DNA from: Promethearchaeota archaeon
GTDB taxonomy: Archaea > Asgardarchaeota > Lokiarchaeia > Sigyniarchaeales > SOKP01
Assembly: GCA_019057865.1 (NCBI GenBank)
Contig: JAHLWP010000016.1
Location: 17,511-81,510, forward strand
Direction: 5' to 3'
DNA: 64,000 bases
Shown: positions 2,396 through 13,204 of the stretch, piece by piece
How positions within the stretch are numbered: the first letter of the stretch is position 1
Layout: each line of letters begins with the position of its first letter
Program-made: the position numbers and the translations under genes
Notes under the pieces: model-generated
Told to the model about the DNA's origin: nothing
The model's input: the letters and a program-made list of their open reading frames with translations, nothing else
The model's database searches: none

Positions 2396-2894
2396 ATCTT
2401 TTTCTACCTCTGTTTTTAATTTTAAATTTATAGAAAATGAGTCTTTTATTCCTACATGAATAAAAAGGTTATTTTTAAAGTTTCTTAACCCGGATTCATT
2501 CTCATTTTTTTCCAATGGATTTAAAAAAGGTATCAAACACCTAATTTTTCCATTTCCAATTCACTTTTTTTTCCTCCATAACCCGCTAGAGGCAGATAGG
2601 TAAGGCACCTACCTAATAAAAATAAAAATAGTTTTAGACGATACCTTTTATTCTAATTCTCTTATACCCCTTATATTATTTATATTTGATCCTAAAAATT
2701 CCTTTTTAATTTATTAACTAGGTAATTAAAACAAGAAAAGAATAGTTTCTATTGATATTTCATATATATTATATATCTTTCTTGGTATGAAACAATGGTT
2801 TCACGAAAATATTAAAATAATATAGGATGGTTACATCAGAATTGAAATTTTTATTAATTCCTAAGACATAAAAGCTTTATTATTCAAAAGAAAT

Positions 2895-3101
2895 TCAAGA
2901 AAGAACTTCCAATATCTTAGTAAGAATACGAGCTTTACCGCCTGTGGATTGCAGTAAAGTTTTTCCGCATACTAAACATTCAACATCAGTAGCAGAACAT
3001 CCAAAAATAATTTGCTGATTTCCACAATTTAAGCACTTCACACGTAAAAATCTAGATTTTGGCTGTGGAATAATTGCCTTTTCTTCTCTTTTATGAACCA
3101 T
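2895..3101 (-). CDS. rps27e: 30S ribosomal protein S27e
   Basis: [20 protein letters not shown]...CLVCGKTL...GGKA. Confidence 0.97.
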
Positions 3102-3115
3102 TTAATTCACGCTTT

Positions 3116-3397
3116 TTATACTTCTTGTAGTTCGAGTCGTTTTACACGATAAGATTTTGCATAATGTTTTTTGCCACATTCAGAGCATTCCAAAAGGGGC
3201 GTTGTTCTTTTGTTAATCTTTACATTTTTATGAAAGATTTCTTTTGGGAAACTTCCGTATCCCGCTTTTTTGCGTTCTAATCTTCGCCTACCCTGATTTA
3301 ACATACGTTCCTTGCCTTTTTTATAGATTGTGACATTATGTTTTGTATGTATTCTACAGGTTGGGCAGTATCTATTCATTGACCGAGGGTATTTCAA
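3116..3397 (-). CDS. rpl44e: 50S ribosomal protein L44e
   Basis: YCPTCRIHTKH, KGKER, GYG, LECSECGKKH; adjacent to S27e. Confidence 0.96.
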   Translation of the reverse strand: MKYPRSMNRYCPTCRIHTKHNVTIYKKGKERMLNQGRRRLERKKAGYGSFPKEIFHKNVKINKRTTPLLECSECGKKHYAKSYRVKRLELQEV

Positions 3398-3540
3398 TAT
3401 TCACTGACCTTAATATCTAATTAACTTAGGTAGTTATTTATGAATTTTAAATTTTATTAGTTCTCTTTCTTTCTTATAAACTTCTACTATTTAATAAAAA
3501 ATGTTTTAAATCTTATTTACATAATTTTAATAAAACCATA

Positions 3541-4479
3541 TTGATAAGAATTTTGAAGTTTAAAGAGAAATTTAGTAAAGGAATAATAAGTGCTAAGCAA
3601 TTTGATAGGGAAGATATTGATTATATCTTAAAAAAAGCTAAAGAAATGATTCAAATTAAAAATTCTAATATTCTTAAAGGAAAAATCTTAGCAACATTAT
3701 TTTTTGAACCCTCAACCCGTACTCGTCTCAGTTTTGAATCTGCAATGTATAGATTAGGAGGTAATATAATAGGATTCCATTCTGGAGATGTTTCCTCTAT
3801 CAAAAAAGGAGAAAGCATTGCCGATACAATAAGAACGGTTGAAAATTATAGTGACTGTATAGTGATGAGACACAGCCTCGAAGGAGCTGCTCGAATGGCA
3901 GCAAAATTCGCAAACGTCCCGATAATTAATGCAGGGTCAGGAAGTGGTGAACATCCTACTCAAGCATTATTAGATCTATTAACTATAATTAAAGAGGTTG
4001 GATCTTTAGATGGCTTAAATATTGGTATAATGGGTGATCTTAAGTATGGTCGTACAGTTCACTCACTTTCAATTTTACTCTCTAATTTTGAAGTAAATAT
4101 CTATTTCATAAGCCCTAAGGAGCTTAGAATGAGAAATAGAGATAAAGATTTTTTAAGACAACGACAAGTAAAATATAAAGAAATTACTAAATATCGTTTG
4201 ATTCTAAGTGTGTTAGATGTTCTTTATATGACACGAATTCAAAAAGAAAGATTCATTGATTTGGAAGAATATGAAAAGGTTAAGGATATATATGTTTTTA
4301 GAAAAGAGGATCTTGATGACACTAAAAATGGATTTAGATTATTACATCCTTTACCCCGTGTTTCCGAAATTTCACCAAAAGTAGACAGTTCTGAGAAAAC
4401 AATTTACTTTAAACAAGCATTTTACGGAATCCCAATGAGAAAAGCACTTTTAGCAGAATTGATGTCAGATAAAAGCTGA
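3541..4479 (+). CDS. pyrB: Aspartate carbamoyltransferase catalytic subunit
   Basis: FFEPSTRTRLSFE, HPTQALLD, GDLKYGRTVHSL, HPLPR. Confidence 0.97.
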   Translation: MIRILKFKEKFSKGIISAKQFDREDIDYILKKAKEMIQIKNSNILKGKILATLFFEPSTRTRLSFESAMYRLGGNIIGFHSGDVSSIKKGESIADTIRTVENYSDCIVMRHSLEGAARMAAKFANVPIINAGSGSGEHPTQALLDLLTIIKEVGSLDGLNIGIMGDLKYGRTVHSLSILLSNFEVNIYFISPKELRMRNRDKDFLRQRQVKYKEITKYRLILSVLDVLYMTRIQKERFIDLEEYEKVKDIYVFRKEDLDDTKNGFRLLHPLPRVSEISPKVDSSEKTIYFKQAFYGIPMRKALLAELMSDKS

Positions 4480-4502
4480 GAAATCTCTCTATTTATTATA
4501 TT

Positions 4503-6479
4503 CTAAATTTTAATCCTTTTCTGTATAAAAATCGCTTCTAATTCAGATTTGAATAGATTAGATAAACGCTCTTTTATTGATGTCCCATTGATATCAATAT
4601 ATTCATCAAATATAATTCCTCCGTTGATAACTTTTTCAAATTTTTTAAATAAATTAACTCTTTTAGCTAAAGATAACTTTGAATTGTGTCTAATAATGCA
4701 TGATGAATATTTATATGGCATATCACTTCTTAGAGTTGTTCCATTATGCCACGCATTATTTAAATATGTATCATTATGAGGTTGGCTTAAAATATAATAA
4801 TTGTTCTCTTCTTGATTTTTTTCTCTAATTAATTTTTTCATGAAAGTTAAGATCCTTAAAGCAAATTCTTCACTATTTCTTAATTTATCAAGCTCTATTC
4901 CACAATGATTCAAAATTGCTTCATTTAAACCAAAAAAACTTACAGATTTGATTGTATTCTGATAAAAATCATCTTCAATTTTTCCAAAAAAATCATAAAT
5001 CAAACGTTTCCAACCATTTAAAGAATTTAATTTCTTTTCTATTAACGATTCTTTATGTTTAAATAAATCAAAAACACAACTCATTTTGTCAAATAGTAAA
5101 TCTAGGAATAAATCATCATTTCGATTTGCCTTTACTGATATTGAGTGTAAATTAATTAAAATTTTATCTAAAATTATCTGATTTTTACTAGAATTTTTAA
5201 TTTTAATTAAAGCAGAATTTAGAAAATTTGAGGAATTATAGTTGTAAAAGCAAATATTATTATTTTTTAAAATAGGTATTATATCTTCTAAAAAAATATT
5301 TTCTAAATTTGAAGTATTTAATTTTGAATAATCAAATATTATAAAAGGTTTAACATTATTATCAATTTCTTTTCCTCTTATTTTATAATTCAAAAATTCT
5401 TTATCAACTTTGAATTGATTTAAAAATAAATCAGTTGAATCCTTAAAATCATGATAGTTAAACTCAAAAGTTAAACTATGTCTCAGATCTTCAAAAGAAT
5501 TGTTAAAATTGAGAATTTGGGATTTCAAAATATCAATAAAGTATAACATTTTCTCATGGGAATTCATATAAGAAAGAAAATTTTTGTTGAATTCACCTAA
5601 TACTAAATCTTGAGAGAAATAAGGCTTAAAATTATGTAAAAGATCAGTAAAACGTAGAATTAAGTTAATTAAATCTCTAGAATTGGTTAATTTACTCGAG
5701 GAATTCAAATTTCTTTTAATAAGCACCTCTAGTACTGAGTTTGTATTTAAATATAAGCTTAAAGGTCTCAAACTCCAATAATTTAAGTGCAGTAGAGCTA
5801 TTTCTCCTGTTAAATATAAATCAGCTAGATTTTTTGGTAATAAGTTCAAGAGTAAAAATTGCTCAGAAACGTCAGATCCTAATTCCTTTATGAACTTGTC
5901 AGGATTAATATTGCTGCCTTCTGAGTTAAATAATTTAAATACTTCAAATGGAGGTGTTCCTAAACGAGTTAATTTATGTCTTACTTCTTCAAATCCATTT
6001 TCTAATAATATTGCATTAATATATTCACGCATTAAAGGAGCAGTTAGATATTCAATATTAGTCTTCGAAAGGCGCTCTTCAACTTCGTGAGCAATTTGTT
6101 TAGCTATAAAAGATTCCATTCCGCCTTCGTTTATGAGATATTCCTCAATTTTATTTATATCAAATATTTCTTTCGAATATTTAGATGTTCTAATCATTTT
6201 TACCCTATTTTTTTCCACTAAGATCTGTTCAATAGATAATACACTATCTAATATCTGCTTACCTAAAACTGTAATATAATATCCGTCTTCAGAAGATTCT
6301 ATTAATTTACAGTCTTTTAAGGCATTTAAATGAAATGAGAAATTTACAGATGTATTATTACAATTAATAACTTCTTTTTGAAGTCGTGAAAATGAAATAG
6401 GTTCTTTAATTTTTTTTAGTTTCTTTAAAATATCTATTCTAATTTTTTGCCCTAAGGTTTTTAATTGTTTTTCTAACAT
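4503..6479 (-). CDS. wHTH + ATP-cone + degenerate class III ribonucleotide reductase (NrdD-like) protein
   Basis: N-terminal ArsR-like HTH (FSFHLNALKDCKLI), ATP cone (IRTSK...LTAPLMREYINAILLENG...TRLGTP), NrdD-like body (LPKNLADLYLTGEIALLHL; FFGLNEAI). Confidence 0.75.
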   Translation of the reverse strand: MLEKQLKTLGQKIRIDILKKLKKIKEPISFSRLQKEVINCNNTSVNFSFHLNALKDCKLIESSEDGYYITVLGKQILDSVLSIEQILVEKNRVKMIRTSKYSKEIFDINKIEEYLINEGGMESFIAKQIAHEVEERLSKTNIEYLTAPLMREYINAILLENGFEEVRHKLTRLGTPPFEVFKLFNSEGSNINPDKFIKELGSDVSEQFLLLNLLPKNLADLYLTGEIALLHLNYWSLRPLSLYLNTNSVLEVLIKRNLNSSSKLTNSRDLINLILRFTDLLHNFKPYFSQDLVLGEFNKNFLSYMNSHEKMLYFIDILKSQILNFNNSFEDLRHSLTFEFNYHDFKDSTDLFLNQFKVDKEFLNYKIRGKEIDNNVKPFIIFDYSKLNTSNLENIFLEDIIPILKNNNICFYNYNSSNFLNSALIKIKNSSKNQIILDKILINLHSISVKANRNDDLFLDLLFDKMSCVFDLFKHKESLIEKKLNSLNGWKRLIYDFFGKIEDDFYQNTIKSVSFFGLNEAILNHCGIELDKLRNSEEFALRILTFMKKLIREKNQEENNYYILSQPHNDTYLNNAWHNGTTLRSDMPYKYSSCIIRHNSKLSLAKRVNLFKKFEKVINGGIIFDEYIDINGTSIKERLSNLFKSELEAIFIQKRIKI

Positions 6480-6716
6480 ATTTTATTTTTTGTCGGAATC
6501 AATTTTAAATATAGATATAGTTTTATACCTTTAACGCTGCTTATCTAAATAATATGTTTATCAATTATATAAAAATTCGGGAATTTTCCATTGCTTTAAT
6601 AAAAAAAGATAATATGTAGGTGATATTGAAACTTATAGTAAGAGATTTGGTGATCTTTAATTTTAAAATTTTTTTTATATTTAGAATTAGTTATTTGTTA
6701 AAAATTTTAAAAAAAG

Positions 6717-7334
6717 TTATCGTGCCGAAACAGCAATTCTCTCAATTTCATCCTTTCGTTTTACTGCTCTAGATTCTTGACTATTTTGTGCTGCTAAAAT
6801 TAATTCTTGAGCTATATTTTCTTCAAACATTCTTTCATTCCCATGGGATCTAGCACCAATTGCTTGAACGAGATATTTTATAGCTAAGTCAACTCGGCGC
6901 TGGGGCGCGATATCTACTGCTGAAGCATATGATATCCCTCCTCGAGCGATTTTGGTTGTTTCCTCTCTTGGAGCAGTATTAACAACTGCGTCAACTAAAA
7001 CTTGAACCGGATTTTGACCTGTTTTTAACTCTATTAATGTAAATGCATCTTTCAGGCCTTTTATTAGTTTATTCTTTTTTCCAGAAGTATGTGAACTCTT
7101 ATGTCCTTTTATTCTGCTTCCGATAAAACCAGGAGAGAGCAATCTATTGGTGAATCGTTCAATTATTGAGACTCGTGAGCTTTTCCAGAAACGCCTATGC
7201 TCATGACGACCTGCTGAATGTGGTATTATGATGGTTTTTAGATTAATATATTTCTCAAGCGTAAAATCGTTTAACTCGATGTTTTCAAATGACCATTTAT
7301 TAAATAACTTGATCTCAGATTTGCTTTTACTCAT
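6717..7334 (-). CDS. rps7: 30S ribosomal protein S7
   Basis: NPVQVLVDAVVNTAPREE, VDIAPQRRVDLA, KRKDEIERIAVSAR. Confidence 0.98.
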   Translation of the reverse strand: MSKSKSEIKLFNKWSFENIELNDFTLEKYINLKTIIIPHSAGRHEHRRFWKSSRVSIIERFTNRLLSPGFIGSRIKGHKSSHTSGKKNKLIKGLKDAFTLIELKTGQNPVQVLVDAVVNTAPREETTKIARGGISYASAVDIAPQRRVDLAIKYLVQAIGARSHGNERMFEENIAQELILAAQNSQESRAVKRKDEIERIAVSAR

Positions 7335-7346
7335 TATCTATTACCT

Positions 7347-7811
7347 CTATCTAAGTGGCTTTTCTTTCTTACCAGTTAAAAGTGCTTGTAGGCTCACACC
7401 ATTTACTTTTACAACTCTCCACCTTACTCCAGGGAGATCACCGATAGCTCTCCCTTTAGCTCCACCAATACCTTCTAATAGAACACGATCATGCTCATCA
7501 ATAAAATTAAGCGCTCCATCTCTAGACATTATTAGAACTTAATAATGTACTCCAGGTAGAAACGCTGTAATAGTCTTTCCATTTTTCTTTAATTGTACGC
7601 GTACACACTTCCGAATAGCTGAATTGGGTTGTTTACTCTCCCGACCAACTTTCTGTAGCACGATACCTAGGGCTTGTGGAGCTCCTTCTAAGGGATCAAC
7701 CTTCTGTTTTAATTTGAGCTTTTTCCTTTTATATTTTGATTTAGACCAGCGAAATCTTCTTCGATTTTTTCTTAATTGTCGTGCGGCGTATAATCCTTTT
7801 GGTTTTCCTAT
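7347..7811 (-). CDS. rps12: 30S ribosomal protein S12 (uS12), two exons 7811-7550 and 7519-7347, 144 aa after splicing; probable ATA start
   Basis: [15 protein letters not shown]...AFLPG in one ORF and [11 protein letters not shown]...GDLPGVRW in the next; removing 30 nt joins them in frame. Confidence 0.93.
7520..7549 (-). other. Candidate 30-nt BHB-type mRNA intron in rps12
   Basis: In-frame TAA; perfect 9-bp hairpin ACATTATTA/TAATAATGT; 4-bp helix CUGG/CUAG with bulges AG|U and AG|A. Confidence 0.85.
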
Positions 7812-7927
7812 TTTGAACACCAAATAACAATATTTTAATTATATTATAATGTGAGAAAATATCTCATAGAACTTAAAATTTATGAATATTATAAATATCT
7901 TAAATAGAAAAGAATGAGTTCTTCTGA

Positions 7928-10205: not shown

Positions 10206-13204
<2,999 letters not shown>

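Follow-up and report, generated by a model that had tools for sequence, protein, structure and literature searches.

The window analysed here, a 64,000-nucleotide stretch of contig JAHLWP010000016.1 from a Promethearchaeota archaeon, carries on its minus strand the gene rps12 for ribosomal protein uS12, and this gene is interrupted by an exact 30-nt insert at 7520-7549 (positions are window coordinates throughout, and the genome studied is referred to as G000). The insert is very probably an archaeal bulge-helix-bulge (BHB, or tRNA-type) intron within the rps12 mRNA, and is most likely cut out of that mRNA by the tRNA-splicing enzymes; cleavage, ligation and the fate of the unspliced mRNA are predicted here from DNA evidence.

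The minus strand reads CCT GGA G^TACATTATTA AGTTC TAATAATGT CTAG AG^AT GGA, where carets mark the predicted cuts, so the insert in its context is CCT GGA G^TACATTATTAAGTTCTAATAATGTCTAGAG^AT GGA. Read without removal, exon 1 runs on through V-H-Y into an in-frame TAA at 7539-7541, and rps12 is broken into two minus-strand open reading frames (ORFs), 7539-7823 and 7347-7529; on the sequence, the 30-nt insert and the in-frame stop, the original prediction for this locus was right. The Pfam family PF00164 matches the first ORF over profile positions 2-54 and the second over 54-108, and since the halves meet at position 54, no part of S12 is missing or duplicated. Exon 1 (7550-7823) ends with G7550, the first base of an Asp codon, and exon 2 (7347-7519) begins with the AT of the same codon and ends in a stop at 7347-7349. 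In the alignment with eight congeners (alignment A1) the intron, UACAUUAUUAAGUUCUAAUAAUGUCUAGAG, appears as one clean 30-column gap. Its placement in G000 is ambiguous over four equivalent positions because GAG is repeated at both ends; in other lineages, described below, where the ends are not repeated, protein homology leaves a single placement for the cuts, at GGNG^ and AA^. The start codon of exon 1 is uncertain, either TTG at 7823 or a nearby non-ATG codon: the ORF opens at TTG 7823 with a GTG at 7820 and has no ATG start, and public gene calls for close relatives start S12 at M-F-K-I-G.

The genome has 4.26 Mb in 87 contigs, 29% GC content, a completeness of 99.67% and a contamination (GTDB-style) of 5.15%, and it contains a single rps12 match. 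Two JGI metagenome contigs (L169 and L170) are 99% identical to window positions 2788-7898 (5.1 kb) and carry the identical insert, which is not an assembly artefact. A congener and second species with the intron, G097, has the same intron with one base change, in the loop. Codon differences from the rps12 of the window are predominantly synonymous in L169 (8 synonymous, 1 non-synonymous) and L170 (5 and 1), as they are in the intron-less sister species G012 (40 and 3). This excess of synonymous changes in the carriers indicates that the spliced reading frame is under purifying selection in intron-bearing lineages.

We folded a 76-nt RNA (7500-7575, minus strand) and obtained a minimum free energy (MFE) of -19.7 kcal/mol (z = -3.1 versus shuffles) for a structure with a 4-bp central helix CUGG/CUAG including one G-U pair, a 3-nt 5' bulge and a perfect 9-bp hairpin. 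The 5' strand of the central helix, CUGG at the end of exon 1 (7552-7555), pairs with CUAG in the intron (7522-7525) at a probability of ~0.78, and the intron strand is supported by both this fold and the consensus structure described below. The 5' bulge AG^U (7549-7551) is unpaired in the MFE and the centroid structures, placing the predicted cut between G7550 and U7549. The inner hairpin h' (7526-7548) consists of a 9-bp stem (7540-7548/7526-7534) and a 5-nt loop (7535-7539), with the TAA inside it. A strict BHB is defined by a 4-bp central helix and two 3-nt bulges on opposite strands (PMC7714728). Measured against this definition, the rps12 motif has the helix and an exact 3-nt 5' bulge, whereas a clean 3-nt bulge AG^A on the 3' side (7519-7521, predicted cut G7520/A7519) forms only in the register of the outer stem that had been proposed originally, UUCUA/UGGAG with one extra C, at -10.5 kcal/mol. 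An 8-bp outer exon-exon helix, AGCGUUUC (7559-7566) with GGAGCGCU (7510-7517), reaches -19.3 kcal/mol, near the MFE; these strands are partners in the MFE structure, with four more base pairs between 7568-7571 and 7506-7509. In this best fold the 3' cut site falls within a 3x4 internal loop, UAC opposite AGAU, between the outer and central helices. The intron stem, the central helix and the 5' bulge of the original prediction are thus present, its 3' bulge is absorbed into an internal loop, its outer stem is replaced and its description of the motif as near-canonical needs correcting. On the modelled structure, the motif is a relaxed BHB (HBh'-like), canonical in its central helix, 5' bulge and inner stem and looser at its 3' site.

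Both predicted cuts, one following GGAG and the other following CUAGAG, lie two bases 3' of the central helix and would yield CCT GGA GAT GGA (PGDG), the product that had been anticipated from cutting after the second base of each bulge and for which homology in the other lineages fixes the same cuts. Symmetric cut positions together with a precise functional junction are what a BHB is expected to show, and the symmetry relative to the helix appears to point to the splicing endonuclease EndA. Placements shifted off the real junctions showed the same geometry in 30 of 7800 cases (0.38%), making it unlikely that the geometry of the insert arose by chance. Rfam and ARAGORN searches of the 64-kb window gave no matches.

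Ten other lineages have an insert of 29-32 nt, quite different in sequence, at the same rps12 codon, giving eleven lineages with G000. We found these carriers through protein searches with each exon, which led to short S12 fragments in public assemblies whose contigs were then inspected. A phylum-wide pattern search added only G097; the other carriers (L220, L222, L224 and L227-L232) come from metagenome assemblies and one NCBI metagenome-assembled genome, and contigs of related carriers are present in the sequencing runs SRR16631312, SRR10836661, SRR21285571 and SRR1555744. In all eleven lineages the last base of exon 1 is G (GGAG or GGUG) and exon 2 opens with AY GG, and the invariant Asp (GAY of PGDG) is restored solely by joining of the RNA. 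The last intron base is A in nine of the eleven, so the unjoined reading there gives Asn (AAY). RNAalifold, run on a plain MAFFT alignment with no structure supplied, returned a consensus containing the central helix, four unpaired columns (24-27) with the 5' junction, and the hairpin; nine of its eleven pairs have changed on both sides with pairing kept. Within the central helix, the first pair is C-G in every lineage, the second is U-A in seven, C-G in three and an A.G mismatch in one, and the third is G-C in eight and G-U in three. The third base of the Pro codon, which belongs to the exon, and its partner in the intron switch together from U-A to C-G, a change that directly supports the helix between exon and intron, the defining feature of a BHB. 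In alignment A3, which comprises five lineages (two of them G000 and the near-identical G097) and has no gaps across the stem, pairing of the inner stem is complete (100%) with seven of nine pairs covarying, and the whole named structure is 89.6% paired versus 30-42% with slid partners. The structure has therefore been kept through compensatory change among homologous introns, as a BHB would require.

Synonymous exon sites also seem to lean towards the outer helix in carriers. Intron-bearing alleles form a mean of 6.7 of its 8 pairs compared with 5.4 in intron-less alleles (Mann-Whitney p = 0.002, a value that is only indicative as the sequences are related), and all eight pairs are formed in 5 of 11 intron-bearing alleles versus 0 of 40 intron-less ones. 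Full-length S12 proteins identical to exon 1 of L222 were considered as possible spliced transcripts and rejected, as they come from intron-less relatives at ~93% DNA identity. Gene callers render the S12 of carriers as a longer (86-101 aa) and a shorter (45-78 aa) fragment (P0031, P0086, P0121, P0133 and others), and in P0007 it was called as a frameshifted 117-aa product. Splitting or truncation of such genes, seen as 90-aa and 60-aa S12 fragments in public sets, distorts the annotation of Asgard genomes.

Several observations weigh against the excision of a BHB intron from rps12. The position of the 3' cut site in a 3x4 internal loop of the best fold makes the motif non-canonical. In L222 and L229-L232 (5 of 11 lineages) the hairpin can extend over the 5' junction, and the central helix is reduced to three pairs and a G.A mismatch with a low predicted probability; the best fold of L220 has the central helix shifted by one base. 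The 4-bp central helix is predicted with a probability of 0.8-1.0 in the remaining five, G000, G097, L224, L227 and L228. In addition, G000 has an in-frame ATG (7527-7529) 9 nt past the TAA, so that termination followed by reinitiation is formally possible in this genome. Finally, archaeal transcription and translation are coupled, and ribosomes could therefore reach the TAA before splicing takes place.

The host is predicted to possess a broad-specificity (alpha-beta)2 EndA together with the ligase RtcB, i.e., an endonuclease capable of acting on relaxed motifs and an enzyme to join the products. The EndA family PF01974 has two matches in G000. One, on contig C71 (locus L001 1171-1773), is a 200-aa alpha subunit in which the Tyr, His and Lys are kept and an N-terminal loop carries KPR; among PDB entries it best matches 3p1z_B, the Aeropyrum pernix catalytic alpha subunit. 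The second, assigned as the beta subunit and located on contig C69 (L002 1189-1812), is a 207-aa paralog without the His. The presence of two paralogs agrees with the (alpha-beta)2 EndA with an L1 loop reported for Asgard archaea, a type that accepts relaxed motifs in vitro (PMC5829648). RtcB was identified on contig C75 (L003) with E = 1.7e-168. ARAGORN recognized only 18 tRNA genes in the whole of G000, none of them in the window; most of its tRNA genes are probably too interrupted to be recognized, and the low count fits the heavily interrupted tRNA genes described for some Asgard lineages in two reports (PMC11291895; bioRxiv 10.64898/2026.10.13.758758).

We propose the following route for the rps12 transcript. 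In the primary transcript, CUGG at the end of exon 1 would pair with CUAG at the 3' end of the intron to form the 4-bp central helix, closed on one side by the 9-bp intron hairpin and on the other by the exon-exon helix. The (alpha-beta)2 endonuclease would then cut each strand at a distance of two bases on the 3' side of the central helix, leaving GGAG at the end of exon 1 and CUAGAG at the end of the intron, and RtcB would join the exons into CCU GGA GAU GGA (P-G-D-G), allowing a normal uS12 to be made. The predicted spliced junction is CTACCTGGAGATGGAGCG, and the released intron would probably be a small circle. The original assignment to an EndA-type intron draws support from the site shared by eleven lineages with its covariation, the split Asp codon, purifying selection, the presence of EndA and RtcB, and similar micro-introns elsewhere in the genome.

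These micro-introns emerged from a structure-free census of indels, in which 1.54 Mb of G000 was aligned with the sister species G012 (86% DNA identity). The census yielded 130 indels of 15-130 nt, ten of which are ORF-restoring and 28-34 nt long; nine of the ten are in G000, rps12 included, and the tenth is specific to G012. Cuts with BHB geometry at product-equivalent placements were found in seven of the ten (six of the nine in G000 and the one in G012), and the remaining three come close. Besides rps12, the G000 inserts lie in genes for a Zn-alcohol dehydrogenase (C60:11314-11342, 29 nt), EF-2 (C82:40874-40903, 30 nt), a small protein of 87 aa (C65:42354-42384, 31 nt), a CO dehydrogenase (C41:42257-42288, 32 nt), a 4Fe-4S protein (C41:25103-25131, 29 nt), LeuRS, which has two (C49:5260-5287, 28 nt, and C49:5689-5722, 34 nt), and Elf1 (C75:101438-101468, 31 nt); five of these eight have BHB geometry at product-consistent cuts and three are close to it. 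The Pfam halves abut in CO dehydrogenase (457/458), EF-2 (across the G2 motif), LeuRS, the Zn-alcohol dehydrogenase and Elf1. Extrapolation from nine inserts in 1.54 of 4.26 Mb would give ~25 introns in G000 that are absent from G012. It is reasonably likely that the rps12 intron belongs to a genome-wide system in some Asgard archaea, with dozens of tRNA-type introns of 28-34 nt in protein-coding genes that include core translation and transcription genes (uS12, EF-2, LeuRS, Elf1 and possibly RpoA'), gained and lost between species of ~86-93% DNA identity and removed by EndA and RtcB.

The G012-specific insert in a coding ORF is a 32-nt BHB insert at L061:8316-8347 that is absent in G000. BHB inserts of ~30 nt were also seen in tRNA-like sequences, at C71:138058-138089 in G000 and at L191:6541-6570 in G012, the latter site resembling a tRNA acceptor stem and D-arm with the insert in the D-loop. 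By length, the introns of tRNAs and mRNAs seem to form a single class. A repeated mobile hairpin of the miniature inverted-repeat transposable element (MITE) type was rejected as an identity for the insert, as such an element should occur in multiple similar copies: the rps12 intron has no further genomic copy at up to 6 substitutions, and blastn-short searches with it and nine other members of the class found only chance AT-rich matches of 13-20 nt. Two other ways of taking a census were abandoned. A structure-only scan for ORF-restoring BHB motifs gave 16,087 candidates with no excess at 28-34 nt and is useless for this purpose because same-strand operon junctions swamp it. A paralog-based blastp scan for split ORFs found few cases (fwdA-like, LeuRS) and mostly returned selenoprotein genes with in-frame TGA and antisense noise.

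The insert could instead remain in the mRNA, with S12 made as two polypeptides that assemble in the ribosome. The N-terminal piece would end ...LPGVHY at the TAA and the C-terminal piece would restart at ATG 7527-7529 (MSRDGALNF...), and in-frame ATGs near the 3' end of the intron in L224, L227 and L228 add to the one found 9 nt after the stop in G000. No Shine-Dalgarno-like sequence precedes this ATG, however, whereas S7 has GAGGT, and L220 lacks such an ATG altogether, its caller-predicted second ORF starting far downstream and encoding 45 aa. Moreover, the restarted piece would read Asn for the invariant Asp in nine of eleven lineages, the terminal G of exon 1 would go unexplained and the covarying exon-intron central helix would have no role. 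Other members of the class shift the frame inside motifs, such as DEEQERGITI in EF-2, with no start codon needed. Altogether, a split gene appears very unlikely. A slightly smaller chance attaches to translational bypass, known from phage T4 gene 60 and the yeast mitochondrial byps elements, by which the ribosome would take off at GGA (Gly) and hop over the hairpin with the insert never removed from the RNA. The rps12 insert does resemble bypass elements, as these are generally described: it is short, forms a hairpin, contains a stop codon and interrupts an ORF directly behind a codon for Gly. It differs from them in lacking a matching pair of take-off and landing codons, the triplet before GAT being AGA and not GGA, and in splitting the Asp codon; if the ribosome resumed at the following GGA, the conserved Asp-Gly would be lost, and nine of the eleven lineages have no contiguous GAY after the insert. 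The cuts, symmetric and two bases from a covarying 4-bp exon-intron helix, form an endonuclease signature that bypass does not require.

Removal from the RNA by a route other than EndA and RtcB, e.g., by another structure-specific RNase and a ligase with the BHB look incidental to the hairpin, is about as improbable as bypass. The 3' site that is not a clean bulge and the five lineages in which the BHB is not the lowest-energy fold would fit such a route, but in every lineage the cuts fall symmetrically about the central helix, BHB inserts of ~30 nt are present in tRNA-like sequences of these genomes too, and the host EndA is of the type that accepts relaxed motifs in vitro (PMC5829648). Least probable of all, to an extreme degree, is a dead or artefactual gene, whether the insert is a product of misassembly or has recently disrupted a decaying rps12. 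The 5.15% contamination of the bin speaks for it; three independent assemblies that share the insert, its presence at the same site in G097 and nine further lineages, the status of the gene as the sole rps12 of a 99.67% complete genome, and synonymous changes that far outnumber non-synonymous ones in carriers all speak against it.

The rps12 gene is uninterrupted in 39 of 40 GTDB relatives, and the fortieth, G005, appeared split and was rejected as a candidate as its gene is merely broken across two contig ends. A further 80 archaeal loci comprise 77 in which rps12 is uninterrupted and three that are truncated by contig ends, and the intron pattern is absent in 377 of 379 Asgard genomes. The intron thus sits in an ORF that is uninterrupted in relatives, as is the case for the intron of cbf5 discussed below. 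A recent gain specific to G000 was considered and dropped in view of the same-site introns elsewhere and of carriers on early, scattered branches of the tree. In a tree built from 417 nt of the gene, the carrier rows occupy such branches of a genus-level clade and at least four gains or losses are needed; the intron-less G012 is nested within the carriers G000, G097 and L224, and L222 has intron-less relatives at 93% DNA identity. The sequences indicate that the rps12 intron is inherited in several related Asgard lineages and lost or absent in many close relatives. For this single short gene, the simplest reading appears to be that the intron is old and was precisely lost several times; as an alternative history, one favourable site may have received the insertion repeatedly.

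A 2023 review names cbf5 and HVO_1309 as the only two archaeal genes with mRNAs on which the tRNA splicing endonuclease acts, and anticipates further ones (PMC10485636); in the literature searched, we came across no description of BHB introns in protein-coding genes of Asgard archaea. The known system nearest to rps12 is the cbf5 pre-mRNA intron of Crenarchaeota (Aeropyrum, Sulfolobus) (PMC2738675; PMC10485636). Like the rps12 intron, it is short and interrupts a protein-coding ORF, its borders with the exons form a relaxed BHB, its hosts have a hetero-oligomeric (alpha-beta)2 EndA, and it is patchy among relatives, implying gain and loss. In contrast to cbf5, the rps12 intron lies in the sole genomic copy of the gene for uS12, belongs to an Asgard lineage, has a size fixed at 29-32 nt and is one of many such introns in the same genome (EF-2, LeuRS, CO dehydrogenase, Elf1 and others); splicing of cbf5 has been shown experimentally, whereas that of rps12 is predicted from DNA. 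HVO_1309 of Haloferax volcanii has a BHB in its mRNA that is cut by the tRNA splicing endonuclease (PMC7714728; PMC10485636), as is proposed for rps12. The Haloferax EndA is, however, of the alpha2 type, whereas the rps12 case needs a broad-specificity enzyme, and HVO_1309 was the only additional mRNA substrate from a systematic Haloferax study. The rps12 intron also differs in lying inside a conserved coding motif. The non-canonical tRNA introns of Asgard archaea (PMC11291895; bioRxiv 10.64898/2026.10.13.758758), share the predicted machinery and motif and the pattern of repeated gain between close relatives; the 18 ARAGORN tRNAs of G000 fit such interrupted tRNA genes, and ~30-nt BHB inserts are present in tRNA-like sequences here as well. 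They differ in that these reports, as far as they were consulted, treat tRNA genes only and mention no introns in protein-coding genes.

What makes the context of the rps12 intron unusual is that the gene encodes an essential ribosomal protein, that the host is an Asgard archaeon and that one genome contains many sister introns. On comparative support, an essential ribosomal protein gene would depend on the removal of an intron, and if the genome-wide reading holds true, a prokaryote closely related to eukaryotes would routinely splice mRNAs in expressing its genes. Should splicing be confirmed, it would become testable how coupled transcription and translation avoid translating the unspliced mRNA, how the introns spread and vanish so quickly, and whether splicing regulates ribosome production.

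Three further features of the window and the genome were recorded. In rpoA1, the gene for RNA polymerase A', a 65-nt insert relative to G012 is located at ~12903-12967 on the minus strand, directly after GHFGH (alignment A2). It brings stop codons and a frame change, and its ends can pair as GGCCUC/GAGGCC; a strict helix-bulge test at the homology-defined boundaries of this insert did not fit, and an intron of greater length or of another shape may be present here. The two metagenome contigs L169 and L170 match the window only between 2788 and 7898, and beyond 2788 ~5 kb of L170 and 0.9 kb of L169 are without any window match, which suggests a rearrangement or a variable region beside the S12-S7 block in these strains. 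Lastly, in-frame TGA codons occur in paralogous genes at C37:8569-10285, C23:162312-164217, C23:234361-236305 and C14:43976-45878 and in neighbouring small ORFs, where they sit within the conserved motifs FPTDDCxI*ILGP and ADGVxxxG*xxxEC; as a guess from these motifs, they could be selenocysteine codons in HdrA- and MvhD-like proteins.

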